From the NCBI GenBank assembly GCA_964349555.1, contig CAYGGK010000001.1:49486-113485 (forward strand): a DNA stretch of 64,000 nt, in the 5' to 3' direction. The stretch is from an uncultured Candidatus Saccharibacteria bacterium (GTDB lineage Bacteria; Patescibacteriota; Minisyncoccia; Phycocordibacterales; Phycocordibacteraceae). The translations under genes were made by a program, and so were the position numbers. A model generated the notes under the pieces. It had not been told where the DNA came from. It was given only the letters and a program-made list of their open reading frames with translations, and did no database searches. This document shows, piece by piece, positions 8,227-30,295 of this stretch (positions are counted from its first letter, which is position 1; each line of letters starts with the position of its first letter).

Positions 8227-8251
8227 CGCAGTAAAATATCCTTATCCACAT

Positions 8252-8275
8252 CCGGTCGGTCAGAGATAAGAATAT
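8252..8275. repeat. Repeat R1a: CCGGTCGGTCAGAGATAAGAATAT upstream of PaaX-like gene 1; embedded in a short inverted repeat (CTTATC...GATAAG)
   Basis: Seen directly. A second copy lies at 8901-8924, downstream of the same gene. Confidence 0.7.
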
Positions 8276-8294
8276 TTGTTTTACGATATGAGAG

Positions 8295-8876: not shown

Positions 8877-8900
8877 ACCAGTCAACATTCTTATAATAAA

Positions 8901-8924
8901 CCGGTCGGTCAGAAATAAGAATGT
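8901..8924. repeat. Repeat R1b: CCGGTCGGTCAGAAATAAGAATGT downstream of PaaX-like gene 1; flanked by the inverted repeat CATTCTTAT...ATAAGAATG
   Basis: Seen directly; 22/24 identity to R1a. Confidence 0.7.
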
Positions 8925-14234: not shown

Positions 14235-15484
14235 TTTTCACCTCCTTTTCCAGCCAACGGAACGAACGGATTGTTCGCCCAGATGACTGTGTTGCCGGCA
14301 CCCTTTGAGGATTCCCGCATCGCATCGAGTTGTGCGAGTAGCATTCCCTCGGCGCCATGGTCTTTAATGACATCGAGCCGCACACGGAGAGCCTCCGCTT
14401 CTTTTTCGCCAATCATCCCGATGACATCTGCTTTCGCTTGGCCAGTTTTGAGTGTTGACCGAGCCTCTTGTTCGGCGGTATACACTGCCGCCGCGGCTTT
14501 TTGGGCTTCCGTTTTTGCGTCTCCGGAGAGTTCGACAGTTTGCAGATCGGCCGTGCGTATCTCTACGCCGTACCTTCCACGCAACCCCCTTGGCAGAGGG
14601 GCGTCGTCTTTCTCGTCGGCTAACAGGTCACTAAGGTCGATAATGGGTTTTGAGAACTCCTCAGACCATTGGCTCGATATACTCTTCATATCTCCATCTT
14701 TTTTGATGGAGATAAGATCATCGTATCCCTTACTTCCGACGAAGTTCCGCACTTGGCGGTTGATCGCGGCAGTGATACGCCGAATCCAGTCCTCACCGCT
14801 GAACAACGCGCGATACGGGTTGCGTATAGCGACTGTCACGAGCGTGAGCTCATCAGTTGGGAGACGATCATTTGTCTCCGCGCCGTCGGTCACGATCGCA
14901 TAGGTGAAGTCGGCGACATAGATGAAGTCAGTTACTTCGGCGCGCGGAAGGACTTTTTCTTTCCCTTCCTCACTTTCCGTGTACGTCTCGTTCCACTCGA
15001 ATTGGTAGACATACACGCTATTTGCCCACGGCCATCCGACCCAGTAGAGGCCGAGTTTTTTGAGTAGCCACGAACGGTCGTCATAATAACTATCCTCCGT
15101 CTCCTCAAAACCATTTGCGTTGTCTTTGCCGTGATAGAGAACCTCCCAGCTTGGGGAATCACTCTTGAAGCCTTTTTCCCCCTTCTTCGTCGGGTTGAGA
15201 TGGTATCCCTTAAAGGACATGATGAAGCGGTCGAACGACGAGCCGCGCATGATAGCCTTGGCGGTTCCTTCATTTACCTTCGTGAAGAGAATACTCTCTT
15301 CTGCGAGCCACGGGAAGCCGAACACCACGACAGCCGTAATAAGCGGTACGAGTACCGCCACTACGACAGCCGCAATAGGTGCGACAGCCACAATAAGCGG
15401 CCAGAATTCTGCTACGACGGCCGCAACGACGGCTAGAATGCCTAGCACAGCGAACAAACGTTTCATGATTATTCTCCCAGTCAA
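14231..15484 (-). CDS. SPFH/band-7 (stomatin/flotillin-like) membrane protein
   Basis: N-terminal TM helices, then a core ending in the Ala/Glu-rich coiled-coil GVEIRTADLQTVELSGDAKTEAQKAAAAVYTAEQEARS, typical of the SPFH C-terminus. Confidence 0.6.
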   Translation of the reverse strand: MTGRIIMKRLFAVLGILAVVAAVVAEFWPLIVAVAPIAAVVVAVLVPLITAVVVFGFPWLAEESILFTKVNEGTAKAIMRGSSFDRFIMSFKGYHLNPTKKGEKGFKSDSPSWEVLYHGKDNANGFEETEDSYYDDRSWLLKKLGLYWVGWPWANSVYVYQFEWNETYTESEEGKEKVLPRAEVTDFIYVADFTYAIVTDGAETNDRLPTDELTLVTVAIRNPYRALFSGEDWIRRITAAINRQVRNFVGSKGYDDLISIKKDGDMKSISSQWSEEFSKPIIDLSDLLADEKDDAPLPRGLRGRYGVEIRTADLQTVELSGDAKTEAQKAAAAVYTAEQEARSTLKTGQAKADVIGMIGEKEAEALRVRLDVIKDHGAEGMLLAQLDAMRESSKGAGNTVIWANNPFVPLAGKGGEK

Positions 15485-15617
15485 TGTTCATATCCAGCTC
15501 AGGATTGAGCCAGACTTCTGCCATACAGCATACACGAACCCAATCATTTGTCAAGTACCCCGCAACGGTTCAATTCTTTAGACAACACAACGTGTTGACC
15601 ACCCATCATCTACTCCG

Positions 15618-15669
15618 TGGGAAATCAACAATTCTTGCTATAGCAGAAGTTGTTGATAGTTGTTATTTA
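15618..15669. repeat. Repeat R2a: ~52-bp element containing the imperfect palindrome ATCAACAATTCTTGCTATAGCAGAAGTTGTTGAT
   Basis: Seen directly. Copies at 16268-16301 (same orientation) and 30199-30250 (reverse complement, 1 mismatch in the core). Confidence 0.8.
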
Positions 15670-16250
15670 AAAGGGAGGCCGAAATGTTTGCGTATCCACA
15701 CATCATTCTCTATTTCTTCCACAACCGCATAGAGCACGTCCTTGCCGATATGCAGGTCTGCTTTAAGGAGGGCAACAAATTCTTCACAGTTGTACGGATA
15801 AATCCACGCGCTGTCCTGTACACGGAGAAAACCGACCTCTTGTACGTGATGCCGTAATATTTCACGAGTCTTTTTCCGTTTTTCTGGAACGTCAAACAGT
15901 ATCAAGCGGTAACGCCGATCCCACTTGCGCGGTTTGTGCGCGAGAAGAGAGAGCCTCTGTTGTTCCATGGCTAAAGACTCTTCACCACGTCTTGTAAGGC
16001 GCACACAACGTTTCCCGTCATGTTCGACGAACTCAATCTCGCCCTTCATTTTCAATCGCGCGAGAATGCCTCTGGTCTGATACTTAAGTTTGGCAAGAAC
16101 GCCGCTCTTCCCAAGCATCTGAAACATGTTAGGTGCAATGGCCGCAACAGCGATAACTCCGGCTACACCTATCGTCATAAGCATCGCGCTGCGTACATTG
16201 CGGCGCCTACTCTTCTGCGCGGCACTCGCTTCAAGAGATTTCATGTACAC
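15663..16250 (-). CDS. PaaX-like (Cas2-fold middle domain) putative transcriptional regulator, paralog 2
   Basis: WDRRYRLILFDVPEKRKKTREILRHHVQEVGFLRVQDSAWIYPYNCEEFVALLKADLHIGKDVLYA aligns residue-for-residue with the ORF at 8295-8876. Confidence 0.55.
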   Translation of the reverse strand: MYMKSLEASAAQKSRRRNVRSAMLMTIGVAGVIAVAAIAPNMFQMLGKSGVLAKLKYQTRGILARLKMKGEIEFVEHDGKRCVRLTRRGEESLAMEQQRLSLLAHKPRKWDRRYRLILFDVPEKRKKTREILRHHVQEVGFLRVQDSAWIYPYNCEEFVALLKADLHIGKDVLYAVVEEIENDVWIRKHFGLPFK

Positions 16251-16267
16251 ACCCTACACCACCCATA

Positions 16268-16301
16268 ATCAACAATTCTTGCTATAGCAGAAGTTGTTGA
16301 T
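16268..16301. repeat. Repeat R2b (core palindrome copy) upstream of PaaX-like gene 2
   Basis: Identical 34-bp core to R2a. Confidence 0.8.
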
Positions 16302-16346
16302 ATCCGATTGGGCTACTCGCCTGGATTATTCGCCGCGTTATGTTTG

Positions 16347-16429
16347 TGCTGGGGAGAGGACTCGAACCTCCAATGGGTTGCCCCGCTAGCTCCTAAGGCT
16401 AGTGCGTCTACCAATTTCGCCACCCCAGC
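16347..16429 (-). tRNA. tRNA-Leu (anticodon TAG)
   Basis: Hand-folded cloverleaf: acceptor GCTGGGG/CCCCAGC, anticodon stem CTAGC/GCTAG, loop CTTAGGA, long variable arm, T-loop TTCGAGT. Confidence 0.8.
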
Positions 16430-16577
16430 CGGCTTCCATTGCCATACGCGATGGAGGACGACTTCCAAAGCATACTATGTTCTGTTATATTTTTCCTAAC
16501 GCGCCTGTATGATTACATACGAGCGTTCGTTCGGAGAGAGAATGAGCGAAGACGCTTATTCTCTCCTCCTCACCTCG

Positions 16578-16650
16578 CGCCTGTAGCTCAGTTGGTAGAG
16601 CAGCTCCCTCTTAAGGAGACGGTCCCTGGTTCAAGCCCAGGCAGGCGCAC
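16578..16650 (+). tRNA. tRNA-Lys (anticodon CTT)
   Basis: Acceptor GCGCCTG/CAGGCGC, D-loop AGTTGGTA, anticodon loop CTCTTAA, T-arm CCTGG TTCAAGC CCAGG. Confidence 0.8.
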
Positions 16651-16740
16651 AAACGAGCAAAGCGAAGTTTGTGCGAGCCGGAGCGCGACGGCGCGAGGCG
16701 GGGTCGCGGGCGTTTTCAGCAGAAAACGACCTGTGACCAC

Positions 16741-17574
16741 TTAGTGTGAGTCTGTATGTTGTGCGAAACTTTTCATGAGGTCGCGCGTGACGGGGCCGGG
16801 CGATCCCGACCCGATAGCCTTCGCGTCCACCGAGGCGACCGGTATGATGTCTTTAAACGACGAGGTGATAAAGACCTCATCCGCGCCGAGAAGCTCATCG
16901 ATAGAAACGGCCCGCTCTTCTGTCGGGTGGGACTTGCGCGCGATATCGAGCACGACCTTGCGCGTAATACCGAGCAGGATGTTTTCTTTCGGCGTGATAA
17001 CGCTACCGTTCTGTACGATGAAAACATTGCTGGTGGTGCATTCAAGCGCCATGCCTCCTGCAACATACAGACCCTCGATAGCGCCAGCAGCTTCCAACTT
17101 CTTTTGAAGAAGGACTGCCGTTATGTAATTCGTCGTTTTATACGCGGGGAAGGCCCGCTGGTGTTCGTGAGTGAGTAGCGGAGCACCATTGGCGTATAAC
17201 ACTTCCGGGAGCATCGTTGCCGGCTCGGCAGTGATGAAGAATGTTTCGCGACCAGCAACATGCTTGATGCCCTCTCTCGCTTCACCTCCTGTGAGGACCA
17301 TCCGGATATGCGCGCGGCGACCGGATGAATTTTCTTCAATGACCGCACGCATCATCTCAAGGGATTCTTTTTCAGAAAAGGGGAGAACGAGGCCCAGAGC
17401 ATCTGCAGATATTTTGAACCGTTCCCAGTGGTCGCTGAAATGAAACGGCTCGCCAGCGAATGCGGCAAGTCCCTCGTAGATACCGAAGCCGCGGAGCACC
17501 CCGAGGTCAAGCACGCCAACCCTCGCCTGGCTCAAGGGAACAATCGAGCCATTTAAGTTGCAGACGGGGTCCAT
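16741..17574 (-). CDS. Class IV aminotransferase (branched-chain amino acid / D-amino acid aminotransferase family)
   Basis: Fold-type IV PLP enzyme signatures (LHYGQGVFEGLKAYR-like, E.F..SS, TRK). Confidence 0.7.
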   Translation of the reverse strand: MDPVCNLNGSIVPLSQARVGVLDLGVLRGFGIYEGLAAFAGEPFHFSDHWERFKISADALGLVLPFSEKESLEMMRAVIEENSSGRRAHIRMVLTGGEAREGIKHVAGRETFFITAEPATMLPEVLYANGAPLLTHEHQRAFPAYKTTNYITAVLLQKKLEAAGAIEGLYVAGGMALECTTSNVFIVQNGSVITPKENILLGITRKVVLDIARKSHPTEERAVSIDELLGADEVFITSSFKDIIPVASVDAKAIGSGSPGPVTRDLMKSFAQHTDSH

Positions 17575-17596
17575 ATTTTTATTATCTTACCACGAG

Positions 17597-17686
17597 TGCC
17601 GAGGGTGGGAATCGAACCCACATGAGGGTTTTTAGGCCCTCTCAGGATTTTAAGTCCTGTGCGTCTACCAGTTCCGCCACCTCGGC
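17597..17686 (-). tRNA. tRNA-Leu (anticodon TAA)
   Basis: Acceptor GCCGAGG/CCTCGGC, anticodon stem CAGGA/TCCTG, loop CTTAAAA, long variable arm, T-arm GTGGG TTCGATT CCCAC. Confidence 0.8.
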
Positions 17687-17762
17687 TTGTTTTCAGTGTA
17701 GCAAACGAACATCGCTGTGGCATTCAATTCCCGCTGGCGGATGCGAAGCATCCTCCTTCTTG

Positions 17763-17834
17763 AGGCCCGAGCGGGAATTGAACCCGCGCGTAACGGTTTT
17801 GCAGACCGTCGTGTTACCACTTCACCATCGGGCC
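17763..17834 (-). tRNA. tRNA-Cys (anticodon GCA)
   Basis: Acceptor GGCCCGA/TCGGGCC, anticodon stem ACGGT/ACCGT, loop CTGCAAA, T-arm GCGGG TTCAATT CCCGC, discriminator U. Confidence 0.8.
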
Positions 17835-17848
17835 GTCCGCTGATGATA

Positions 17849-18181
17849 CTAGTTTTTATGAGATTCGCCCAGCGGCTCATTGTTGTCGAGGAGGAAGTCA
17901 ATGCGAGGAAGGCGCAGACGCGAGTGGCTCTTCAGATAATCTGAGAATGCCTCACGCTTGCGCGCGAGGAAGGCGAGCGCGGCGCGAGCCTTCTCTACGG
18001 GGAAGACGCTGACGAAGATCACTATACGCTCCCCGTGCGATACGCCCTCTGCCCGAATGACGGTGATGAGCGAGTCAGTCCCCGCTTCTCTCGCGATAAA
18101 CTGCGCCGCTTCGCGCGCGACAATTTCGACGGCTCGACCGGCCTGTTTCCGCGGGCTTCGACTCCGTGCGTCTGGGTTCAT
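17849..18181 (-). CDS. rbfA: Ribosome-binding factor A
   Basis: 110-aa protein immediately downstream of infB, the conserved infB-rbfA order. Has an RbfA-like KH-domain pattern and 4-nt overlap with infB. Confidence 0.6.
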   Translation of the reverse strand: MNPDARSRSPRKQAGRAVEIVAREAAQFIAREAGTDSLITVIRAEGVSHGERIVIFVSVFPVEKARAALAFLARKREAFSDYLKSHSRLRLPRIDFLLDNNEPLGESHKN

Positions 18182-19647
18182 GATTCGGTAACGACAAAGG
18201 CAACGAGTTCGTCGCCGTACGCCGCGTTCTCGCGCGCCTCAATCTCCACGCCGAAGTCGCCTTCGGTCTTTATCTCCTTCACGTCTGCGCGCGCTTGCTG
18301 AAGATTTTTAATACTGCCTCGCGTGAGCTCATCCTCTCGGCGGAGCACCTTCACGCGATTCCCAACAGTGAACATACCTGACACATAGCGCGCGCCCAGA
18401 ACCTGCTTTTTCGCTCCGAGCGAAAAAGTTTTGAGCACCATTGCGCGCCCAAGCTCTTTCTCCACCGCGACGGTGGGCACTTTTGCGTCCAGAAGGGTTC
18501 TCACCTTTTCAGATAATTCGTAAATGATAGAGAAAGAAAGCACCGGAATATTCTCTCGTTCAGCGAGGTCGCGCGCGACGGCGTCGGTCCCGACGTTGAA
18601 GGCGATTATTGTTCCGCCGCCAGCCTTTGCCGTCTTCACGTCCGTTTCCGACACACTCCCGACGCCGGAAGAAATGACGCGGACGGATGCGCTCTCGTGA
18701 GTAATTTTGGACAGTTCGTGGGCGATAGCGTCAATGGAGCCGGCGACGTCGGCCTTCACGACGAGTGGGAGTTCGGCTATTCCCTCGACCGAAACGCCTC
18801 GCTCCGGCGCTTCGCCAAATGATGTTGCGTTTTTCCGTGCGAGCGCCTCCGCCTCTTTTTTATTTTTTACCACGCTGAAGAGCGCGCCCGCCGTCGGCAA
18901 CTTGCTGAATCCTGAAATACGAGCCGGCTCCGATGGCCCAGCGTGTGGGACACGTGTGCCGCGAAAGTCCTCAATGAAGCGTATGGGCGCATAGGCGTCG
19001 CCCGCGACGACGAACCCGTCCAGAGAGAGAGTGCCGTCTTTCACGATGAGTGTTGCGGAGGCACCGCGCCTCGGGTCCTGTGTTGATTCCAGCACAAAAC
19101 CGGTTGCGCTTACTGAAGGGTCTGCGGTAATCTCGGCTAGGTCGGCCGCGAGTAGGACGAGGTCCAGAAGCTCAGAAATACCCTCGCCAGTCTTGGAAGA
19201 TATTTGCGCATACGCGATTTCTCCGCCCATTCCTTCAATAAATATTTCATTCTCAATAAGCGAATTTTTCGTGCGGGCGATGTCCGCGTTATTTTTATCA
19301 ATCTTTGTAATCGCGATTATGAAAGGGATGCTGGCCTCTTTAATCGCCGTAAGTGCGTCGAGCGTCTGTGGCATCACTCCTTCGTCCGCGGCAACGACTA
19401 GAATGGCGATATCCGCGGCCGCCGCCCCGCGCGTGCGGAGCGCCTTAAACGCCTCGTGTCCCGGCGTGTCAAGAAAGGTGATCGGCCGCTCGCTGTGGAG
19501 CGCGATATACGCGGCAACGTGCTGGGTAATACCGCCAGCCTCGCCCGCGACGATATTTTCCTTCCGGATGTAATCCAGAAGAGAAGACTTCCCGTGGTCT
19601 ATGTGACCCATCACCGCGATGACGGGCGGTCGTGCGGTCCGCGCCAT
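18178..19647 (-). CDS. infB: Translation initiation factor IF-2 (short form)
   Basis: G-domain VIAVMGHIDHGKSSLLD, DTPGHEAF, TKID. C-terminal IF-2 beta-barrel. Lacks the long N-terminal region. Confidence 0.9.
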   Translation of the reverse strand: MARTARPPVIAVMGHIDHGKSSLLDYIRKENIVAGEAGGITQHVAAYIALHSERPITFLDTPGHEAFKALRTRGAAAADIAILVVAADEGVMPQTLDALTAIKEASIPFIIAITKIDKNNADIARTKNSLIENEIFIEGMGGEIAYAQISSKTGEGISELLDLVLLAADLAEITADPSVSATGFVLESTQDPRRGASATLIVKDGTLSLDGFVVAGDAYAPIRFIEDFRGTRVPHAGPSEPARISGFSKLPTAGALFSVVKNKKEAEALARKNATSFGEAPERGVSVEGIAELPLVVKADVAGSIDAIAHELSKITHESASVRVISSGVGSVSETDVKTAKAGGGTIIAFNVGTDAVARDLAERENIPVLSFSIIYELSEKVRTLLDAKVPTVAVEKELGRAMVLKTFSLGAKKQVLGARYVSGMFTVGNRVKVLRREDELTRGSIKNLQQARADVKEIKTEGDFGVEIEARENAAYGDELVAFVVTES

Positions 19648-19716
19648 AATGGCTCTATTTCATCACAAAAATCACTTTGCCGCAATCTTTTGCGCAATTT
19701 TTGTTAGAATGAACGG

Positions 19717-20892
19717 ATGTTTTGGAAACGAAGGTCTTACTTTGATTATGCCGCTGGCGCGAGCGGGAACCCTTCATCGCCGCACGAAGAGGGGAGGCGG
19801 GCAAAGAAAATGTTGGAAGATGCGCGTACGAGTATTGCGCGACTCGTTGAAGTACAGTCCGATGATGTGCTCTTCACGAGCGGCGCAACTGAGGCAAACG
19901 CGCTTGCTATCCTCGGACACGTGCGGGCCCTGCGTGCTGAAGGAAGGAACGACATTCATATATTGTATCTGCCAAGCGCACACGCGTCGGTGGTGGAAAA
20001 TGCAAAGATATTGGAGACGGAGAACGTTTCGGTTGAAGCTCTGCCGATTAAAGATTGCCGCGTTGATACCGAAGCGCTCGCGAAGGCGCTTCGCTCAGAG
20101 ACGGCGCTCATAACAATGGACGCGGTCTGCGGCGAGACGGGAGTTATATGGAATACGCGCGAGGTGGCAAATACGATTCAGGCCGCTTCGAAAATACCGT
20201 TTTCGCGCTCGCTCGAGGCACGGCAGCCACTCGCAACGAAAACGGCATTTCCGTCGCGGCCCCTGCTGCATGTAGACGCAAGTCAGGCGCCCCTGACCGA
20301 GAAAATAACGCGCGCGCATTTCGGTGCGGATATGTTGACATTGGACGCATCAAAAGTCGGTGAGGTTCGCGGTATCGGTAGCCTCGTTGCGCACAGAACA
20401 ATTCCACTCGCTCCTCTGTATGGCGGCGGAGGGCAGGAGCGCGGACTGCGCCCTGGGAGCGAGACCCCAGAGCTTGCGAAGGAGTTCGCAGAGAGTCTAC
20501 ACGCCGCTACGCACGGTCGCGAAGCGTTTCGCGCATCCGCCACGCGCGCGCGAGCAGGGCTCGTACGTCATCTCACCCCTTCTATTCAGAATATTTTTAT
20601 AAACGAATCTCGTACACAAGCTCCGCACATCCTTAACCTCTCCCTCCCCGGCCGCGACACCGACTACCTCGTCGCGCTTATGGACGGAGAGGGCTTCGCC
20701 GTCTCTACGCGTAGCGCGTGCGAGACCGACTCAGAGGAAGGTTCACGGGCGGTTCTCGCTCTCTCCGGCAACCTGGAGCGCGCGCGAGCGACACTGCGCA
20801 TATCGTGGGGTCCTCGTGCGCGCGCGAGCGAATTCTCCCGTTTCGCACATACGCTTGTGCGAGCAGTCGCATTTATTGACAACAAGGGTTGA
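19717..20892 (+). CDS. Cysteine desulfurase (NifS/IscS-like, class V aminotransferase)
   Basis: FTSGATEANALA, a PLP-lysine region (LDASKVGEVRGIGSL), C-terminal active-site Cys region. Confidence 0.75.
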   Translation: MFWKRRSYFDYAAGASGNPSSPHEEGRRAKKMLEDARTSIARLVEVQSDDVLFTSGATEANALAILGHVRALRAEGRNDIHILYLPSAHASVVENAKILETENVSVEALPIKDCRVDTEALAKALRSETALITMDAVCGETGVIWNTREVANTIQAASKIPFSRSLEARQPLATKTAFPSRPLLHVDASQAPLTEKITRAHFGADMLTLDASKVGEVRGIGSLVAHRTIPLAPLYGGGGQERGLRPGSETPELAKEFAESLHAATHGREAFRASATRARAGLVRHLTPSIQNIFINESRTQAPHILNLSLPGRDTDYLVALMDGEGFAVSTRSACETDSEEGSRAVLALSGNLERARATLRISWGPRARASEFSRFAHTLVRAVAFIDNKG

Positions 20893-20910
20893 CGGTAGCA
20901 TCATGGTTGT

Positions 20911-21666
20911 ATGAACATAGAAGAACTCTCCAAATCCCAACTCATTCTGCTCACGATTCTCGTGAACTTCGTCACCTCCGTCGCGACTGGAATCTTGACG
21001 GTTTCCCTACTTGACCGCGCGCCGTCATTTGTCACTCAAACAGTCAATCGCGTCGTGGAGCACACCATTGAGACCATTGCGCAGGCAACGCCTACGATTA
21101 TTCAAGCCCCCGCACCCTCCAACCAGGACCTGGTCACTGCGGCGATAGGATCGGCGGCCATTCGCGCAGTCGCCATTTATTCCGCAGAAACCGGCACCTC
21201 AACGCCGGCTCTTTCCGTCGGTACGTATATTCCCAAAGCGCGCGCCATCGCCACCGCCACGCAAGGCGCTTTGCCCAAAGAGGCACTTATAGAATTTCCG
21301 GGCGGTCTCTATATTCCCGCATCACTTGCGCAGGAGGGCGGCGGCGTCGCTATTTACGGTTTCGCAGATGATGCCATTCTGCCAAAGGGTACGTCGCCTG
21401 TTTTGGTGGCCGCGAGCGACTTAAAGCTCGGAGAGACCGTTCTTGCTCTTGGTGCCGATGGTTCGGCTTCTACCGGCATAGTCGCGCGGGTGGGCGGCGA
21501 GAACATTTACACGACACTGCCGGACATAGGCGCGGGAAGCGGCGCGGTGAACCTCTCCGGCAATCTCATCGGCATCGGTGTCGGAGTGAAGCCTGGGCTC
21601 CTCATTTCCGCGGGTAGGATCAGCGCACTTCTCACGGCGACCACGACTTCAGCACAATCGCGTTAA
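20911..21666 (+). CDS. Membrane-anchored protein with degenerate trypsin-like fold (probably non-catalytic)
   Basis: N-terminal TM. GAGSGAVNLSGNLIGIGV echoes the GDSGGP...G.VIGI motif of trypsin-like proteases, but the Ser and His positions are not conserved. Confidence 0.3.
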   Translation: MNIEELSKSQLILLTILVNFVTSVATGILTVSLLDRAPSFVTQTVNRVVEHTIETIAQATPTIIQAPAPSNQDLVTAAIGSAAIRAVAIYSAETGTSTPALSVGTYIPKARAIATATQGALPKEALIEFPGGLYIPASLAQEGGGVAIYGFADDAILPKGTSPVLVAASDLKLGETVLALGADGSASTGIVARVGGENIYTTLPDIGAGSGAVNLSGNLIGIGVGVKPGLLISAGRISALLTATTTSAQSR

Positions 21667-21678
21667 GACATACCACAC

Positions 21679-24390
21679 ATGCCTCCATTCAATAATTTCA
21701 CCACAAAAGCAAAAGAGGCCGTGCGTCGAGCGCATGAGCTCGCGATAGAACGCGGACAAAACCACGTCTCGCCGCTCCACTTGCTCGCCGCTCTCGTTCT
21801 CCAAGAGGAATCGCTCGTCTTCTCGATGCTCGACCGTATGGAAATTGACACCGTTGCACTTGCAGACTCGGTACTTGAACACTTGGAGACGCCCGAGACC
21901 GCCACCGTGCTCTCACCCTCATACCAGATATATCTCACACCGGATCTTGCGCAGGCACTTGAAGCATCGGGGAAAATAGCCGCGCGCATGAACGACACCT
22001 TCGTCGGCACCGAGCATCTTTTCCTAGCGGTCATTGAGCACCCCGGACAAGCCGCTGATATTTTCACGCGTTTTTCCATAGGTAGAGACGCGGCGCTTGC
22101 CATCCTCAAGGAACTCAAGAGCTCAAAGGACGGACAAACGGCGGAGCCGAAACGTTTCCGCGCGCTCGCCAAGTACGCCCGCAACCTCACCAAGCTCGCT
22201 TCAGAGAACAAACTGGACCCGGTTATCGGTCGCGATGTTGAGATTAACAGAGTCATTCAAATCCTCGCGCGCCGAACCAAGAATAATCCAATACTTATCG
22301 GCGAAGCGGGAGTAGGGAAGACCGCCATTGCCGAAGGTCTTGCCGCGCGCATGGCCACCGGCGATGTCCCGCAATCACTAAAAGGAAAAGAGCTTCTCTC
22401 GCTCGATCTTGGGCTTATGGTCGCTGGTACGAAGTATCGCGGCGAATTTGAAGAACGGATGAAAAGTGTGATGAAGGAAGTTGAGCGATCAGAAGGGAAG
22501 GCGATCCTCTTCATTGACGAACTCCATACACTTGTCGGTGCCGGAGGCGCCGAGGGTTCTCTAGACGCCTCAAATATGCTGAAGCCCGCGCTTTCGCGCG
22601 GAGATATCCGTGTCATCGGCGCAACCACACTCAAGGAATATCAAAAATATATAGAAAAAGACGCCGCGCTTACCCGCCGCTTCCAGTCAGTGTTCGTACA
22701 GGAGCCGTCGATAGAGGACGGTATCGCCATTTTGCGCGGACTTCGCGACAAGTATGAGCTCTTTCACGGCGTGCGTATCACCGATGGCGCTATCGTTGCG
22801 GCCGTTGAGCTCTCGGCGCGCTACATTAGCGATCGATTTTTACCGGACAAGGCTATTGACCTCATTGATGAAGCGGCCTCCGGACTGCGCATCGCGCTTG
22901 AGAACAAGCCGCCGCTTCTTGATGAAACCGACCGAAAAATTCGCCGTCTGGAAATTGAGCGGCAGGCGCTCCAGAAGGACGCAGAGCTCGCGTCCGCCGG
23001 AGGCGCTACCGCTTCGGGTGGAAAGGAAATCAAAGAGCGTATCAAAGAGATAGATACTGAAGTCGCCGACTTGAAGGAGACAACGAGCGAACTTGAGCTC
23101 AAGTGGAAGAATGAAAAAGAAGTACTTGAAGGTATTCGTGCGGATAAGACCGAGCTTGAGAAGTTGAAAATACAAGCGGACAACGCCGAGATGACGGCCG
23201 ACCTCGGGACGGTCGCAGAGATACGGTATGGCAAGATGCCCCACTTACAAAAAGATTTAGAAACCAAGCTCAAGCGTTTAAAGACGCTCCAAAAGTCGCG
23301 GCGCGTGCTGAACGAAGAGGTGGCTGAGCAGGACATCGCGTCGGTTGTGAGCCGTTGGACCGGCATTCCTGTTGCGCGGATGCTTGAGGAAGAGGCGTCA
23401 AAGCTCTCGCGTATGGAGGAGTGGCTCAGAAACAGCATTATCGGACAGGACAGCGCGGTGAAAAAAGTCACCGATGCCGTGAAGCGCTCCAGAGTGGGCA
23501 TCTCTGACCCGAACCGTCCGATTGGCTCGTTCCTCTTCCTCGGTCCCACTGGCGTGGGGAAGACTGAACTCTCCAAGAAACTTGCGGAGTTTATGTTTAA
23601 TGATGTGGATGCGCTTGTCCGCGTTGATATGAGCGAATTTATGGAGAAACACTCGGTTGCGAAGCTTATTGGCGCGCCGCCGGGCTACGTTGGATATGAA
23701 GAAGCGGGTACCTTGACCGAGCGCATACGACATCGTCCGTACGCGGTAGTGCTCTTTGACGAGATAGAAAAGGCGCACCCGGAAGTATTCAATATTCTCC
23801 TCCAGGTGCTCGACTCCGGCCACCTCACCGACGGCAAGGGTCGCAAGATTAATTTCAAGAACACTATTATCGTGCTCACTTCAAATATCGGCGGTGAGTT
23901 CATAGACCGCCTCGCGCACATCGGTTTTGGGAAGGCTGGTGCGACCGACGCGACGCGTTACGAGGAGACGAAGGAGAAGGTGATGGGAGCGCTTAAAGAA
24001 CACTTCCGACCCGAGTTTCTTAATCGCCTTGATGACATTATTATCTTTGATGTGCTCGCGAAGGAGGCACTCGCGCGCATTGTTGATACGCAGATTGAAG
24101 AGGTGATGAAACGGCTCACGCAGAAGCGCATCGCGCTTGTTATAGAACCGCCCGTGCGAACATGGCTCGCAGAGAAGGGATATAATCCACAGTACGGCGC
24201 CCGCCCCCTACGTCGCACTATCCAGGACAAGATACTGACGCCGCTTGCCTCAATGATGGTTGAACAGGGCCTCATGGAAGGCGGCACCGTCACGGTCTCC
24301 ATTAAAAATGACGAGCCGCATTTTGACGTGAAGAAGAAGTTGACTAGAACGAAACCCAAAAGCGCGAAAAAAGAGACCAGCATTGCCTAA
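21679..24390 (+). CDS. clpB: ATP-dependent chaperone ClpB
   Basis: N-domain, two AAA+ modules ([30 protein letters not shown]), long M-domain coiled coil, sensor-2. Confidence 0.95.
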
Positions 24391-24417
24391 ACCTTTAGTT
24401 TCTGTTAGATTCTTTGT

Positions 24418-24573
24418 ATGTCACAAGACCGCCTACTCCGGCTCAAGTCCACGAAGTCCAGCCACGTCGTCTGGACTCGCAAGAATAAGAAAAAGGTGGA
24501 ACGGAAAATAGAACTTATGAAGTTCGACCCCACGCTCCGCAAACGCGTACTCTTTAAAGAAACGAAGAAGTAA
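24418..24573 (+). CDS. rpmG: 50S ribosomal protein L33 (Cys-less form)
   Basis: 51-aa ORF, below the ORF-track cutoff and translated by hand: MSQDRLLRLKSTKSSHVVWTRKNKKKVERKIELMKFDPTLRKRVLFKETKK. Matches the L33 pattern without the zinc ribbon. Confidence 0.7.
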   Translation: MSQDRLLRLKSTKSSHVVWTRKNKKKVERKIELMKFDPTLRKRVLFKETKK

Positions 24574-24597
24574 TCTAGTGTGCTATCGTTTTGTCGA

Positions 24598-24668
24598 GGG
24601 CCTATAGTTTAGCGGTAAAACAGCGGTCTCCAAAACCGCCGTCCCAGGTTCGAGTCCTGGTGGGCCCG
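24598..24668 (+). tRNA. tRNA-Trp (anticodon CCA)
   Basis: Acceptor GGGCCTA/TGGGCCC, anticodon stem GCGGT/ACCGC, loop CTCCAAA, T-arm CCAGG TTCGAGT CCTGG. Confidence 0.8.
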
Positions 24669-24719
24669 CACGGTGGGGAAAATCATATTCTCCCTCTAGA
24701 TACGCGGTATACTATCTCT

Positions 24720-25733
24720 ATGCGTTCCCGCACAGCTCTGTTTGCACTCTTGCTCGTCGCGGGCTCTCTCGCGTTGCCTCTCGTCGCGCAGGCGGGCATC
24801 CCATTCTTCGGTCCAATCATCGAGCCTAATATTTCGAACATTGCAACGAATTCCCAGTATTGTCCTCTGGGTTGGGGTGCAGTCATCGTCGTTATCAATA
24901 ACATAATCAGCCTCCTTATAACGCTCGCTATCGTCTTTGTTGCGCCACTGATGATCGCATGGGCCGGTTTTCTTCTTGTCGTAAATCCGGTGAATGCGGG
25001 CGGGAAAGAAGAAGCGAAAAAGATTCTTACTAATACCGTTGTCGGCATCGTTCTCGCGCTTGCGGGTTACATGATAGTGGCCGCGCTCATGGCAGTTCTC
25101 TACGATTCTAGGGAGGTGGGTAAAACATGGACACAACTCATTACCTCAGGTGGCCTAGACCCCTGCATGGAGATTGCCGGGAGCCTCAACCAAGCTCAGC
25201 AGGAAGCCGGAGCTCCGACTCCAGGTGTTGCCGTAGCCCCAGGCGCGTGTCCGGCGCCGCTTTCGTCGCTTACCGACCCGTCCGCGACTCAAATGGAAGG
25301 AGGGCAGACTGTGATATGGACTAATACCGACCCTCGGCTACAAGCATGCGCAAACAAATTCATAAGAGACGCAGGTGGCGGCAGTGTTACTTCTGCATAC
25401 AGGCCGCAATCGTATCAGACGCATTTATGGGAGATACATGACCGATGGTGTACGCAGGGTTTGAAATCTAATTCGGACCCAGTATGCAGTTCTCTCAGAG
25501 ATACTGTTTCTCAGGAAGTGGCAAAGCACGGCCTTTCCTCCTGTGGCTCCGTTGCTCAAAATGCCTCTAATCATGGCAATCCACAGGGCGCGAGCATTGG
25601 AGTCGATATTAGTCTTACCAGTGGTGATTATAGCGGGACACAAACGTTGGCGTCGCAATCGTGTCTTACATGGGCAAATTATCCAGGAGATCAATGGCAC
25701 TACAACCTTAAATCTAGCTGTTCGTGCCAATAA
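24720..25733 (+). CDS. Secreted or membrane fusion protein: N-terminal pilin-like two-TM module plus C-terminal Cys-rich M15 (VanY-like) peptidoglycan peptidase domain
   Basis: Signal peptide. Two TM helices around the loop NPVNAGGKEEAKKIL. The C-terminus has SAYRPQSYQ (SxYRS...Q), GASIGVDIS (G.A.DI) and DQWHYN (WHY), matching the three M15 zinc-binding signatures; many Cys. The start was trimmed to 24720, downstream of tRNA-Trp. Confidence 0.55.
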   Translation: MRSRTALFALLLVAGSLALPLVAQAGIPFFGPIIEPNISNIATNSQYCPLGWGAVIVVINNIISLLITLAIVFVAPLMIAWAGFLLVVNPVNAGGKEEAKKILTNTVVGIVLALAGYMIVAALMAVLYDSREVGKTWTQLITSGGLDPCMEIAGSLNQAQQEAGAPTPGVAVAPGACPAPLSSLTDPSATQMEGGQTVIWTNTDPRLQACANKFIRDAGGGSVTSAYRPQSYQTHLWEIHDRWCTQGLKSNSDPVCSSLRDTVSQEVAKHGLSSCGSVAQNASNHGNPQGASIGVDISLTSGDYSGTQTLASQSCLTWANYPGDQWHYNLKSSCSCQ

Positions 25734-25743
25734 AAGACAGAAG

Positions 25744-26634
25744 TTAAGACACTGTGTGTCCTAGCTTACGGAGCCAAGCCTTCTGGCGGCGGGCGTACTG
25801 CCAGAGTTTTGCTGAGAGGGTGGGGAAGAGAGATTCTTCGGCGCGCTCCTTTCGTAGAAATTCGCCGATGATTTTGTACTCAAGACCAAGCTCGTTCAGA
25901 CGCTCATCGCCCACCTCTTCGCGTACGCGGCGCACCTCGTCAATAAGCCCCCGCTCAAGCGCGCTTTTGAGACGTGTGTCTATCCGCGCGCGCAGTTCCT
26001 CGCGCGAGGGGTCAATTACAATCCATTCAATCAGGTATCTCAAAGATATGCCTATAGGTACGTCTTTGGGACACCTCAACGGAACAGTGCCGAGGAACTC
26101 GATGATTTCGAGCGCGCGGATGAGGCGTCGGCGGTTCTGCGGGTCAAGCTCGCTTGCGCGCCGCGGGTCTACTTCTCTAATTCGCGCGAATAGTTCCTCA
26201 GTGGGGAGTGCCTCAAGCTCCTCGCGTAGTGCAGGATTAGCATCAACTCCCGTCGGGAGGCCGCGGAGCAAGGCGTCAAAATAAAAGTGCGTCCCACCGA
26301 CAAGGATCGGGAGTTTCCCGCGAGACGATATTTCCTCAATCAGGCGCGTCGCATCGGCCACGAAATCTCCGGCGGAGTACTTCTCGCTCGCGCCACGGAT
26401 ATCAATAAGGTGATGCGGAACCCCCTGCATTTCTTCAAGCGTTATTTTCTCAGTGCCGATATCAAGCCCGCGATATACCTGTCGTGAGTCAACCGAGATC
26501 ACCTCGCTCATGAAGGGTTTCGTAAATCCTTCATTTGATGAAGGATTTACGAAACCCTTCAAAGCAATTTCAACGGCCCGAGAGGATTTACCCGAGGCGG
26601 TGGGGCCGGCTATGCAGAGGATTTGTGTTGCCAT
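25744..26634 (-). CDS. miaA: tRNA dimethylallyltransferase
   Basis: P-loop ILCIAGPTASGKSS and ISVDSRQVYRGLDIGTEK, HHLIDI. Carries a 16-aa in-frame insertion right after the P-loop. Confidence 0.85.
   Translation of the reverse strand: MATQILCIAGPTASGKSSRAVEIALKGFVNPSSNEGFTKPFMSEVISVDSRQVYRGLDIGTEKITLEEMQGVPHHLIDIRGASEKYSAGDFVADATRLIEEISSRGKLPILVGGTHFYFDALLRGLPTGVDANPALREELEALPTEELFARIREVDPRRASELDPQNRRRLIRALEIIEFLGTVPLRCPKDVPIGISLRYLIEWIVIDPSREELRARIDTRLKSALERGLIDEVRRVREEVGDERLNELGLEYKIIGEFLRKERAEESLFPTLSAKLWQYARRQKAWLRKLGHTVS
26511..26561. repeat. Perfect palindrome (23-bp arms TGAAGGGTTTCGTAAATCCTTCA / TGAAGGATTTACGAAACCCTTCA, 5-nt spacer) inserted in-frame within miaA
   Basis: Seen directly; it encodes the extra GFVNPSSNEGFTKPF segment. 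Confidence 0.85.
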
Positions 26635-26676
26635 TAAGCGCGATGGTATCATGATAGTGAGGTAACCAATACACAT

Positions 26677-27336
26677 ATGAAAGAGACCAAAAGTAATTAT
26701 TGCGGGCACTGCGGAGAGTTCCACGACACGGTTCGTGACTACTCCTCAATGGTGAAGGTTGGAGAACCCGTACCAGACTTTGAATTTGAAGTGTTCCATA
26801 AAGACACGATTACAACGATGAGCTTGTTGCAACTGCGCGGGAAATGGGCGATCATCGTTTTCTATCCGGCCGACTTCACCTTCATCTGCCCGACTGAACT
26901 TGAAGAATTGGCGGAGCTGTATCCGAAGTTCCAAGGGCTGAACGCAGAAATCATCTCTGTCTCGACCGACACCGTCTTCACGCACAAGGCGTGGCATGAT
27001 GCGTCGAGCGGTATTAAGGCGATCAAGTATCCGATGGCGGCCGACCCTTCGGGTAAACTCGCTCGCGCGTTCGGCGTTCTCATTGAAGGAGAGGAGACGG
27101 CACTTGCGCCGGACGAAGGTCTTGCTCTCCGCGGGACATTCATCATTGACCCTGCGGGCATTCTGCGCGGAGCGGAGATTAACGACAACTCAATCGGCCG
27201 CAAAGGCTCGGAGACTTTGCGTAAGCTCCAGGCGGCGCAGTACGTGGAAACGCACAAGGGCCAAGTCTGTCCGGCTTCGTGGGAGCCAGGTTCCGACACA
27301 CTCGAACCGGGCCTGGACTTAGTGGGGAAGTTATAA
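26677..27336 (+). CDS. Typical 2-Cys peroxiredoxin (AhpC/TSA family) with N-terminal CxxC-containing extension
   Basis: FYPADFTFICPTELE peroxidatic Cys motif and resolving Cys near the C-terminus (VCP). An alternative start at 26749 is possible. Confidence 0.85.
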   Translation: MKETKSNYCGHCGEFHDTVRDYSSMVKVGEPVPDFEFEVFHKDTITTMSLLQLRGKWAIIVFYPADFTFICPTELEELAELYPKFQGLNAEIISVSTDTVFTHKAWHDASSGIKAIKYPMAADPSGKLARAFGVLIEGEETALAPDEGLALRGTFIIDPAGILRGAEINDNSIGRKGSETLRKLQAAQYVETHKGQVCPASWEPGSDTLEPGLDLVGKL

Positions 27337-27380
27337 GATAAGAGTCATTCGACGAACAATATGCTAATCTGCACCTCATT

Positions 27381-27462
27381 GCCGGGGTGGCGGAATCGGT
27401 AGACGCAAGGGATTCAAAACCCCTCGTCGCAAGACGTGAGAGTTCGAGTCTCTCCCCCGGCA
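27381..27462 (+). tRNA. tRNA-Leu (anticodon CAA)
   Basis: Acceptor GCCGGGG/CCCCGGC, anticodon loop TTCAAAA, long variable arm, T-arm GAGAG TTCGAGT CTCTC. Confidence 0.75.
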
Positions 27463-27525
27463 CACGAACCAGTAGAAGTTCGCATGGGTACATGCTCCCC
27501 CGGCACCTGTGTTAAAATATTTTGT

Positions 27526-28500
27526 ATGAACGAAGAGGCGCGTTACATACCGACAAAATACGATTCGGTTTTTTGGATTGACGTTGATCGTATACAGCCG
27601 AACCCCTACCAACCGAGGAAGGAGTTCAGCGAGGCGGGACTCGCGTCCCTTGCTGAGAGCATACGCCAATACGGCGTACTCCAGCCGCTCGTCGTGAGTC
27701 GCGTTGACGTCGAGAAGCCGGATGGCGGGCTCGGGAGCGTATACGAGCTTATCGCCGGTGAGCGGCGCCTGCGTGCGAGCAAGCTCGCCGGTCTCAAACA
27801 AGTACCGGTTGTTATCCGACAGGGCGAGAGCAATCTTACGAAACTCGAGCTCGCCATTATTGAAAATCTCCAGAGAGAAGATTTAAACGCGATTGATCGG
27901 GCGAAGGCTCTGCAAAAGCTTATTGACGAGTTCGGCATATCTCACGTTGAGTGTGCGGCAAAGATAGGGAAGAGCCGCGAGTACGTTTCAAACAGCATTC
28001 GATTACTCGCACTGCCGGAGCACATGCAGAATGCCATTGTTGCCAAGGAGCTCACCGAGGGCCACGCGCGCGCGGTTATGGCCCTGAATGATCGTCCGGA
28101 AGAGCGCGAAACTCTTTTTAAGGAAATTGTTTTAAAGCGGATGTCGGTACGTGCCGCTGAACGCATCGCGCGCTCTATCGCGCAGGAGCGCGTACGCAAG
28201 TATCATAGAAAATCGCCTGAAATGGCAGAGCTTGAAAAATCGCTTACCGAGACCCTCGGCACGCGCGTCATTATCGAGACGAACGCCGAAGGCGGCCGTC
28301 TCCTCATAGATTTTTTCTCTCCCGAGGACCTCTCAACCATCGCGGCCGCTCTCGTGGCACACGAGTTCCAGAACGTGAACACGCCCGTCTTCAAGAACAC
28401 CACACAACTCTCACCCGACTCCGACCCCGCGCCTTACCAGACCGACGTCGAAAAGCCGGACGACGACGATCTATACTCGGTAAAAAACTTCACCGTTTAG
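27526..28500 (+). CDS. parB: Chromosome partitioning protein ParB/Spo0J (no adjacent parA)
   Basis: IQPNPYQPRKEF, GVLQPLVV, LIAGERRLRASKLAG, HTH; the start was trimmed to 27526. Confidence 0.85.
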   Translation: MNEEARYIPTKYDSVFWIDVDRIQPNPYQPRKEFSEAGLASLAESIRQYGVLQPLVVSRVDVEKPDGGLGSVYELIAGERRLRASKLAGLKQVPVVIRQGESNLTKLELAIIENLQREDLNAIDRAKALQKLIDEFGISHVECAAKIGKSREYVSNSIRLLALPEHMQNAIVAKELTEGHARAVMALNDRPEERETLFKEIVLKRMSVRAAERIARSIAQERVRKYHRKSPEMAELEKSLTETLGTRVIIETNAEGGRLLIDFFSPEDLSTIAAALVAHEFQNVNTPVFKNTTQLSPDSDPAPYQTDVEKPDDDDLYSVKNFTV

Positions 28501-30110
28501 TTTTTTTTGAACATTGAGTGCCCTCTCCACTTCCCTCCATGGTGTTTGTGGCGACGGGACGGCTTAGCCGGCTCGGTGAGCCCGAGCGCCGCGCGGATAT
28601 GTCGGCGAGCGAGCGAAGTCTTGGCGATATCAAGCCACTTCGGCGACGGGTGTGCAGAGTCGCGCCGTATTATCTCAACAACTTCTCCGTTGCCGAGGAC
28701 GGTGTCGAATGGGACCAATTTTCCGTTCACTTTCGCACCTTGAATGTGGTTCCCCAAGTCGCTATGTATCGCGTACGCGAAATCAATCGGCGTTGACGCC
28801 ACCGGCAGGTCTATAACGTCCCCGTCGGGAGTGAAGACGAACACGCGATGTGAGAAGAAATCTTCTTTAAGTCCTTCTATGAATTCTTCAGAGCCGGCCA
28901 TGTCAGTATGCGCCTCGACGAGGTCGGCAAGCCATGGTGGGGCCTTTGCTGCGGTCCTTGCCAACCCGTCTTTCTTTGAAAACTTCATGAGTGATGGGAT
29001 AAGTGAGGAGATCCACGTAAGAGAAAGCGAGGAGAATTTGTTTTTTTGGGCACCTTTATCTAATTTCTCCACCTCTTTGCCGAGTTGTTTATAGGACATG
29101 TGTGACGCTATGCCGAACCGCGCACGACGATGCATTTCCTCGTCGCGAATCTGAATTTCCACTATGCCGGCGTCAGAGGTTACGACCGTCGTGTGAAGCG
29201 ATTGGTATCCGTTCGGTTTTGGAAAGGCGATGTAATCCTTGAACTCTCCCGGGAGTGGCTTATATAGAGCATGCACGACGCCAAGCGTCGCGTAACAATC
29301 TTCAATGGTCGGGACAATAATTCGCAAGGCGGCGATGTCGTGAATGAGGCTTATGTCGTCACGCTTTCTCTTTAACTTTTGATGCAAGCTCCAAATTCCT
29401 TTTATACGAATATCGGTATGGAAATTCTTGAGCCCCTTTCTTGCCAACTCCCGTTTCAGTTCTTTCTGCACCTTTAAGAGACCGCTTTCGGTCTCTTTCG
29501 TTTTTAGAGTACGCATTTCAGCAGTATGGCTGGCGGCGTCAGGGTCGACGAAAGGGAAGGAGAGGTCCTCAATCTCACGTTTCATTCTTCCCATCCCAAG
29601 CCGGTCGGCGATGGGGGCGTAAATTTCCAATGTTTCAAGCGCGATACGTCGGCGCTTATGTTCCGGCACGTACTCAAGCGTTTCCATGTTGTGCTTGCGA
29701 TCTGCGAGCTTCACGATGAGCACGCGAATATCACTCGCGGTCGCCACCAACAGCCGGCGCAGAGACTCCGCGTGGCGCTCAGCACCGCGGTATTTATGCG
29801 TACCAAGCTTGGTTACTCCCTCAACAATAAAAAGCAACTCTTTCCCGAATTCTTTTTCCATTTCTTCGCGCGTGATGCGGCCGTCCTCAACAGCGTCATG
29901 CAGAAGGCCCGCGGCGACAGTCGTCGCGTCCATGCCGTACTCGGCGAGCGTTTTCGCGGTGGCTGAAGGATGAACGAAATAGGGTTCTCCAGAATAGCGC
30001 TTTTGTCCCTCATGCGCCTTCCTGGAGAATTCATACGCTTTCTCCACGAGAGCGACGTCTTCGGGCGTTGCACCCTCCATCTTGGCGATAATCTCCTTGA
30101 CGGTGGTCAT
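28497..30110 (-). CDS. rel: RelA/SpoT-family (p)ppGpp synthetase/hydrolase, ACT-less (HD + synthetase + TGS)
   Basis: HD motifs (HPSATAKTLAEYGMDATTVAAGLLHDAVED), synthetase region (DIAALRIIV), TGS (VFTPDGDVIDLPVASTPIDFAYAIHSDLG); ends after the TGS domain. Confidence 0.85.
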   Translation of the reverse strand: MTTVKEIIAKMEGATPEDVALVEKAYEFSRKAHEGQKRYSGEPYFVHPSATAKTLAEYGMDATTVAAGLLHDAVEDGRITREEMEKEFGKELLFIVEGVTKLGTHKYRGAERHAESLRRLLVATASDIRVLIVKLADRKHNMETLEYVPEHKRRRIALETLEIYAPIADRLGMGRMKREIEDLSFPFVDPDAASHTAEMRTLKTKETESGLLKVQKELKRELARKGLKNFHTDIRIKGIWSLHQKLKRKRDDISLIHDIAALRIIVPTIEDCYATLGVVHALYKPLPGEFKDYIAFPKPNGYQSLHTTVVTSDAGIVEIQIRDEEMHRRARFGIASHMSYKQLGKEVEKLDKGAQKNKFSSLSLTWISSLIPSLMKFSKKDGLARTAAKAPPWLADLVEAHTDMAGSEEFIEGLKEDFFSHRVFVFTPDGDVIDLPVASTPIDFAYAIHSDLGNHIQGAKVNGKLVPFDTVLGNGEVVEIIRRDSAHPSPKWLDIAKTSLARRHIRAALGLTEPAKPSRRHKHHGGKWRGHSMFKKN

Positions 30111-30198
30111 AGGTAACCACTATACACCCAACAGTTTATTTTTGCTTTTTAATGAAAATCTCAGCGTAACTATGAGAATCGAATTGGCCTCCCTCTCA

Positions 30199-30250
30199 AA
30201 TAAACACTATCAACAACTTTTGCTATAGCAAGAATTGTTGATTTCCCAGG
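30199..30250. repeat. Repeat R2c: reverse-complement copy of the R2 palindromic element in the topA-rel intergenic region
   Basis: The core ATCAACAACTTTTGCTATAGCAAGAATTGTTGAT is the reverse complement of the R2a core with 1 mismatch; the flanking ~10 bp on each side also match R2a. Confidence 0.8.
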
Positions 30251-30295
30251 AGATAGATGGAGATGAGTGACCAACACAGACGCGGAGGCAGTAAG

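Follow-up and report, generated by a model that had tools for sequence, protein, structure and literature searches.

In PaaX, the regulator described from Escherichia coli and Pseudomonas, a Cas2-like dimerisation domain comes after a winged helix, and the full form of ~305 residues carries a phenylacetyl-CoA effector domain as well. TGATTC-N27-GAATCA is the operator of the E. coli protein, and autorepression by PaaX works through steric hindrance of RNA polymerase at its own promoter (PMC9493321). Here, we describe a shorter relative encoded in a stretch of 64,000 nt (the window, whose numbering is used throughout) from a contig of an uncultured Candidatus Saccharibacteria bacterium. The gene, termed PaaX-like paralog 2, specifies a protein of 193 residues (mini-PaaX) and is accompanied by an imperfect palindrome, R2, which is present on either side of it (copy 1, 15624-15657; copy 2, 16268-16301) and once more between topA and rel (copy 3, 30209-30242). 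R2 is probably the cognate binding site of the adjacent paralog 2, and the bracketing of the gene by two such sites would then serve self-repression as a conserved module of the protein family.

To our knowledge, Patescibacteria have very few recognisable transcription factors, and their promoters and regulation are almost uncharted. No description of the mini-PaaX family or of its palindromes in Patescibacteria was found in the literature.

The mini-PaaX gene and the R2 palindrome

The 34-bp core of R2, ATCAACAATTCTTGCTATAGCAGAAGTTGTTGAT, matches copies 1 and 2 exactly on the plus strand and copy 3 as the reverse complement with one mismatch; in 100 dinucleotide shuffles it gave no match even when three mismatches were allowed. 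The identity between copies 1 and 2 extends over 36 nt (15623-15658 and 16267-16302). At the centre of the element is a 10-bp palindrome (TGCTATAGCA), its outer arms measure 8 bp, the positions between arms and centre are symmetric in part, and its half-sites can be written as ATCAAC-N22-GTTGAT. A first-pass annotation of this DNA had reported an imperfect palindrome in three copies, two around the PaaX-like gene and one in the 185-bp gap between topA and rel. The repeat, its placement and the three gene assignments (PaaX-like, topA and rel) are borne out, and the imperfection can now be put at six non-symmetric positions out of 34.

Paralog 2 is encoded on the minus strand (15663-16244), and the two flanking copies are described in the same orientation. 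Copy 2 is the upstream, promoter copy; centred at -40.5 from the ATG at 16244, it spans approximately -57 to -24, in the -35 region. A putative -10 hexamer, TAGGGT (16251-16256, minus strand), is read 6 nt before the ATG and would make this a leaderless-type promoter. Copy 1, the downstream copy and a proposed auxiliary operator, begins 5 nt past the stop codon.

The only Pfam match of the paralog 2 protein is to PaaX_M (PF20803, E = 1.3e-15), PaaX_C not being matched. The AlphaFold2 model, with a mean predicted local distance difference test (pLDDT) score of 81, shows three helices and a β-hairpin wing, followed by a ferredoxin-like β-α-β-β-α-β unit. Residues D118 and E121 of the Cas2-like domain are conserved. 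The best PDB match obtained with Foldseek was E. coli PaaX (PDB code 8A39, E = 8e-5, 178 columns of the 305-residue target), followed by Rv0674 (PDB code 3KFW) and the structure 3L09; when the PDB was searched by sequence, using the family profile, nothing was returned, and PaaX was found by fold comparison only. Scores against the NCBIfam equivalog model for PaaX (TIGR02277) were 28.7 (paralog 2) and 40.6 bits, far below the cut-off of 264.55. The Cas2 model TIGR01573 (96 positions, cut-off 24.5 bits) matched paralog 2 at 22.7 bits over its positions 1-38 only, which corresponds to a Cas2-like β-α motif at the N-terminus of that domain model, and no transposase or recombinase domain was detected in Pfam and NCBIfam domain searches. 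A transmembrane anchor was considered for the hydrophobic N-terminus of the protein and rejected, as the AlphaFold2 model and the PaaX match place this segment in helices 1 and 2 of the winged helix. As modelled, mini-PaaX is a PaaX-type winged helix joined to a Cas2-like domain without the C-terminal effector domain; it belongs with PaaX by fold and departs from it in lacking the effector domain, a score at the equivalog level and any association with paa genes.

The family is large and uniform. When 1.84 billion cluster representatives were searched with a profile, 277 clusters (50% identity) were obtained at E <= 1e-30, nearly all of them 180-200 residues in length, and hundreds of close homologues of paralog 2 are found in Patescibacteria metagenomes. 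Database records often label these homologues Cas2 or PaaX.

Promoter geometry and co-variation across the family

The family comparison is based on 80 metagenome loci, from which 74 non-redundant Patescibacteria genes with both flanks were retained. For each gene, the best palindrome upstream (within 120 nt) or downstream was compared with the maximum obtained from shuffles; the upstream palindrome exceeded every shuffle in 40 of the 74 genes and the downstream palindrome in 57. At most loci the best match between the two flanks is the palindrome itself, at a similar offset of a few to a few tens of nucleotides from the start or stop codon. The more symmetric copy is the downstream one at 46 loci and the upstream one at 20. 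The palindromes are 34-44 bp in length and most commonly read TATCCA-N26-TGGATA with the centre GCTATAGC, other subfamilies having the centres CCGGTCGG, CGACCG or CCATGG with other arms.

Promoter spacing was measured in 68 genes after their start codons had been re-anchored on the conserved N-terminus. In 50 of these 68 genes the motif TANNNT precedes the ATG by exactly 6-7 nt, and any other offset accounts for at most eight. Leaderless transcription with a -10 element at -7 to -12 has been mapped in Mycobacterium tuberculosis and provides a precedent for TANNNT (PMC3898074). Among 52 genes, 28 have the centre of the upstream palindrome at -37 to -42 from the ATG, and a further ten have it at -17 or -18. 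With TANNNT only 6-7 nt before the ATG, the upstream palindrome would therefore be promoter DNA and not part of a 5' untranslated region. A sigma-70 scan called no promoter at the palindromes; it took the family alignment to reveal the leaderless signature, which has a -10 element only. The centres of the downstream palindromes are more loosely placed, 8-68 nt past the stop codon with one outlier at 101 nt.

The same arrangement recurs around the other paralogs of this genome, each with a palindrome of its own. Paralog 1 (8295-8876, plus strand), found by tblastn with the paralog 2 protein and 46% identical to it, is preceded by the R1 palindrome ATCCTTAT-N20-ATAAGAAT with the centre CCGGTCGG (8238-8273, plus strand), which has the architecture of R2 and a different sequence; the downstream R1 palindrome (8887-8922, plus strand) begins 10 nt past the stop codon, and the pair can be summarised as ATTCTTAT-N20-ATAAGAAT around the same centre. 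A -10 element, TACGAT (8282-8287, plus strand), is located 7 nt before the ATG at 8295. Paralog 3 (locus L001, 3974-4673), on the same contig outside the window and 64% identical, is flanked on both sides by palindromes centred on CGCTATAGCG, the downstream one being a perfect 38-mer, CAGCACAATAATTACGCTATAGCGTAATTATTGTGCTG. Its called start lies within the upstream palindrome, and the family alignment sets the true start 30 nt further downstream. An orthologue of paralog 2 (L010, 70% amino-acid identity), located downstream of the same tRNA 3' end, keeps both palindromes at 30 of 34 positions together with the position of the -10 element, whereas the spacer between the tRNA and the palindrome can no longer be aligned.

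Palindrome types, by centre and arms, sort with subfamilies of the winged helix (recognition helix and wing). Similarity between sites correlates with similarity between winged helices when the Cas2-like domain is controlled for (partial r = 0.26, permutation p = 0.001), and the converse partial correlation, of the site with the Cas2-like domain, is 0.13. Mismatches at symmetric positions on the sense strand are divided about equally between A.C and G.T (27:31 in upstream and 48:42 in downstream copies); this lack of a G.U excess fits duplex DNA and not an RNA hairpin. Of the explanations offered in the first-pass annotation, an operator with autoregulation is the one best supported, by the fixed promoter position in most homologues and by the way in which the palindrome type tracks the winged helix.

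The family-wide bracket, the co-variation and the PaaX-like layout together lead us to propose copies 1 and 2 as the cognate operator pair of paralog 2. The protein would act on R2 as a dimer of winged-helix and Cas2-like-domain subunits. The gene-proximal copy extends from about -57 to -24 in a putative promoter of the leaderless type with TAGGGT as its -10 element, so that bound protein would occlude RNA polymerase and thereby repress its own gene. Copy 1, 5 nt past the stop, could be an auxiliary operator of the same specificity that keeps the protein at the locus, and might function as a looping partner, as a local protein sink or as a roadblock to transcription across the gene boundary. 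The bracket of promoter site, gene and distal site would thus be a conserved and vertically inherited unit, with paralogs 1 and 3 maintaining their own versions.

Upstream of paralog 2 lies a tRNA-Leu gene (16346-16429, minus strand) and downstream an SPFH-like gene (14231-15484, minus strand). The neighbours at the PaaX-like loci of the window are this tRNA-Leu, the SPFH-like gene, an aminotransferase and IF-2, with no paa genes among them, and other family loci have unrelated housekeeping neighbours. A strong sigma-70-like match (TTGACA-16-TATGCT, 10 of 12 positions; 15527-15554, minus strand) is found between copy 1 and the SPFH-like gene; it lies ~70 nt past the palindrome and suggests that this gene is transcribed from a promoter of its own.

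At 22 of 54 loci, the arm of the upstream copy that lies farther from the promoter contains, on the sense strand, a DnaA-box-like motif, TTATCCACA (at most one mismatch), which is present in only six of 64 downstream copies. It is perfect in the upstream R1 copy (8242-8250), and its R2 counterpart, ATATCAACA, has two mismatches.

The topA-rel spacer and other palindromes of the window

The genes for rel (28497-30110, minus strand; HD_4, RelA_SpoT and TGS by domain search) and topA (30296-32770, minus strand) are separated by 185 bp from the topA stop to the rel start. Copy 3 lies inside this gap, as had been reported, but does not adjoin the start of rel: its core occupies -99 to -132 relative to the rel ATG, which is not within the core promoter. 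The homology between copies 1 and 3 covers 74 nt without gaps at 88% identity, and a gapped alignment extends over 92 and 89 nt, respectively (30186-30277 and 15680-15592), with a score of 117 against a shuffle maximum of 27. The 92-nt duplicate (30186-30277, plus strand) begins with GGCCTCCCTCTCAAATAA, which reads GLPLK-stop and matches the C-terminus of the family; it comprises the last 15 coding nucleotides and the stop codon of paralog 2, the palindrome and then ~35 nt more. A relic of the whole gene was considered and rejected, the 75 nt at 30111-30185 not being similar to the 3' part of the gene (p ~0.69), and no PaaX-like gene was found between topA and rel in the relatives.

Immediately before rel is a promoter-like block, GGTGTATAGTGGTTACCT (30111-30128, minus strand), with a -10 element TATAGT (30119-30124) 8 nt before the ATG at 30110. 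The arrangement GGTGTATAGT-8nt-ATG is found directly before rel in five genomes (the window and L093-L096) and suggests a -10-only, nearly leaderless rel promoter set against the end of topA. In three of these genomes (L093-L095) the GGTGTATAGT block begins just 10 nt past the topA stop. These three relatives (Rel 81-83% identical, with the same phosphatase-topA-rel-parB order) have a spacer of only 28 nt between the topA stop and the rel ATG; the spacer of 167 nt between the topA stop and the -10 block in the window (30129-30295, minus strand), which measures 10 nt in the relatives, therefore contains ~157 nt of lineage-specific insertion carrying copy 3. Copy 3 is most likely a recent duplicate of the downstream-copy region that became inserted here, and not a conserved rel operator. 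This comparison, in which the insertion is missing from three relatives that share GGTGTATAGT-8nt-ATG, gives no support to the co-regulation of rel put forward in the first-pass annotation, at least as a conserved feature; R2 is probably no rel operator and the suggested link of R2 to the stringent response is removed.

A fourth relative, L096, has ~1.8 kb inserted between topA and rel (L096 2150-3990), with three small open reading frames (ORFs), a lone R1-type palindrome (ATATTCTTATCTGCATCCGGTCGGAAATAATAAGAACAT) and a duplication of the last ~45 nt of topA (…EYLK-stop); this resembles the outcome of an integration event at the 3' end of topA. With two different insertions at one position, the topA-rel spacer is an insertion hot spot.

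The protein can probably bind copy 3 all the same, judging from the single difference in 34 nt from the cognate sites, and copy 3 might have become a working element of topA and rel, with bound protein or a hairpin and its U-rich tail stopping read-through from topA or modulating rel. In the topA/rel sense its RNA would form a hairpin of 14 pairs, including one G.U, with one C.A mismatch (-15.5 kcal/mol), followed by AGUGUUUAUUU (UGUUUAUUU in DNA); the one substitution has the effect, in this orientation, of replacing a G.U by an A-U pair, and the second lineage, L096, also has a lone family-type palindrome within an insertion at the same topA-rel position. We nevertheless consider such a role doubtful. 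Copy 3 is absent from the three relatives with the 28-nt spacer and the same -10 block, its position from -99 to -132 is beyond the core promoter of rel, its fold z-score in the topA/rel orientation is just -1.2, and the presence within it of the last 15 coding nucleotides and stop codon of a PaaX-like gene identifies it as a by-product of duplication. A secondary role as a terminator or roadblock may have been acquired.

Other palindromes of the window are found inside genes. A perfect 49-nt palindrome, GAAGGGTTTCGTAAATCCTTCATTTGATGAAGGATTTACGAAACCCTTC (26512-26560), is located within miaA (25744-26724, minus strand), just past the P-loop; it keeps the reading frame, adds ~16 residues (KGFVNPSSNEGFTKPF) and has the appearance of a palindrome inserted in frame. 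The same gene contains an imperfect 44-nt palindrome (26033-26076) with a family-like centre, CCTATAGG, and the arms TATCTCAAAGA and TCTTTGGGACA. A GC-rich palindrome of ~30-36 nt, TCCGCCGGAGGCGG(A/G)TCCGCCTCCGGCGGA, lies in frame at 2420-2455, 22991-23026 and 32118-32153, in a Pth-like ORF, a 903-residue ORF and topA, respectively, where it encodes xAGGGSASGGK-like inserts; it is also present in unrelated Patescibacteria contigs (L013, L066, L068, L086 and L088). These in-frame GC-rich inserts are reminiscent of Rickettsia palindromic elements.

Alternative readings

Several observations weigh against a simple operator pair. A regulator with detectable sites only at its own gene lacks an obvious physiological output; this holds for ~92 kb of the source genome (the window and loci L089, L091 and L001), where no more than three copies of R2 and two each of R1 and R3 were counted, and regulon sites may lie elsewhere in the genome, the window having been extended by ~10 kb on either side and by the paralog 3 locus for the R2 count. 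Looping would need a dimer of dimers, and the promoters and leaderless starts of the family genes are themselves read from sequence. In many downstream copies the symmetry is perfect over 38-44 bp, even at positions that vary among loci; this exceeds what a dimer on two half-sites of 6-8 bp needs, and hints at recognition of a hairpin or cruciform or at palindromes that correct themselves. The gene beyond the downstream copy is randomly oriented (29 co-directional and 21 convergent cases), which leaves the distal copy without a consistent target and led to the rejection of this copy as an operator of the next gene. Mini-PaaX and its palindromes might instead constitute a self-contained gene-bracket system, with the protein's own palindrome pair as its main substrate, in place of a regulator of a regulon. 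This idea draws on the almost complete lack of sites other than those at the genes and on the many downstream copies that are perfectly symmetric from end to end. The Cas2-like domain may bind or cleave a cruciform or hairpin, the palindromes may be boundary insulators, or the whole may be a domesticated or slow-moving cassette resembling repetitive extragenic palindromes (REPs) with their REP-associated tyrosine transposases (RAYTs). We regard it as unlikely.

It is less likely still that the palindromes act as RNA, with 5' and 3' stems stabilising or terminating the regulator mRNA and possibly bound by the Cas2-like domain. Stable stems are predicted for all three R2 copies (-12.5 to -17.8 kcal/mol, z-scores from -1.2 to -3.5), the downstream copies stand just past the stop codon and are often perfect palindromes, and nuclease activity is reported for Cas2 proteins. 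However, the upstream copy keeps its position relative to the promoter and not to the coding region, and given a -10 box so close to the ATG (6-7 nt) it would precede the start of transcription and stay untranscribed from its own promoter; nor, as noted above, are G.U-compatible mismatches in excess over A.C on the sense strand. A T-rich tract (at least six T in the next 10 nt) follows only eight of 64 downstream copies, so that in general these do not look like canonical terminators; in the sense of the gene copy 1 has no T-tract, and the tract after copy 3 in the topA sense was not called by the scan. An Rfam search of the window returned tRNAs only. Least likely of all is that the gene and its two palindromes form a present or recent mobile or recombining cassette (akin to REP/RAYT systems, IS200 hairpins or lox- or attC-like sites), of which copy 3 would be a footprint. 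Direct repeats around one small gene, several paralogs per genome in unrelated neighbourhoods, an asymmetric centre that is flipped between the two copies at some loci, lone copies or relics in the topA-rel hot spot and the nuclease fold of Cas2-like domains could all be taken in its favour. Against this, the domain searches found neither a transposase nor a recombinase, paralogs that are just 46-64% identical do not indicate recent copying, orthologues retain their neighbours (those of paralog 1 a CutA1-like gene, those of paralog 2 the 3' end of the tRNA), the differences between upstream and downstream copies are conserved between orthologues, and palindrome copies away from the gene are very rare. 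Cognate scans for 42 genes in 506 kb recovered essentially just the two flanking copies, and a general palindrome scan of 667 kb gave 88 flanking and only 3-5 lone family-like palindromes, the rest being GC-rich hairpins of the terminator type. No target-site duplication is evident at the edges of the element. A scan of GTDB, with one genome per species and the source genome not among them, for CAACAA-N5-GCTATAGC-N5-TTGTTG gave only five matches, all of them unrelated hairpins. Non-dispersal and retained neighbours point to vertical inheritance rather than mobility, and the dispersed element entertained in the first-pass annotation, a REP or a miniature inverted-repeat transposable element (MITE), finds little room with three R2 copies in ~92 kb and a near-absence of off-gene copies in 506-667 kb of related loci.

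Comparison with known systems

The operator-pair reading, which we prefer, concerns a large and uniform family that is routinely mislabelled Cas2 and is represented by several paralogs per genome of roughly 1 Mb. Each member comes with a predicted binding site and a leaderless-type promoter, so that the family offers dozens of protein-site pairs for the study of winged-helix specificity and supplies a promoter model for uncultivated Patescibacteria. It also poses a puzzle, in that each regulator has a second and better site just past its own stop codon and almost none elsewhere.

The closest parallel is the PaaX operator, which like the predicted mini-PaaX sites has short inverted half-sites more than two helical turns apart overlapping the promoter. 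In contrast to PaaX, mini-PaaX has 193 residues and no effector domain, has no paa genes nearby and occurs as several paralogs in a tiny genome, and its sites possess a conserved centre (GCTATAGC and similar) and a second copy past the stop codon. The likeness to Cas2 of CRISPR adaptation is confined to the β-α N-terminal motif that gives rise to the weak matches: only ~38 of 96 model positions are matched, the domain is fused to a winged helix, and the window contains no cas1, no CRISPR-like array and no tandem or regularly spaced repeats. REP elements flanking RAYT genes (REP doublets forming hairpins, REPINs) resemble the present case in that each paralog has its own palindrome family and a lone copy is found elsewhere, but the mini-PaaX palindromes are undispersed and the protein is not a Y1/HUH transposase. 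The lac O1-O2 and gal OE-OI looping systems also combine sites of the same specificity at the promoter and hundreds of base pairs away (~644 bp here), and the distal site is often the better palindrome, as it is at 46 as opposed to 20 loci of this family. They differ in that the distal R2 site lies past the regulator's own stop codon, so that a loop would enclose the regulator gene itself, and in that mini-PaaX has no other operon to control.

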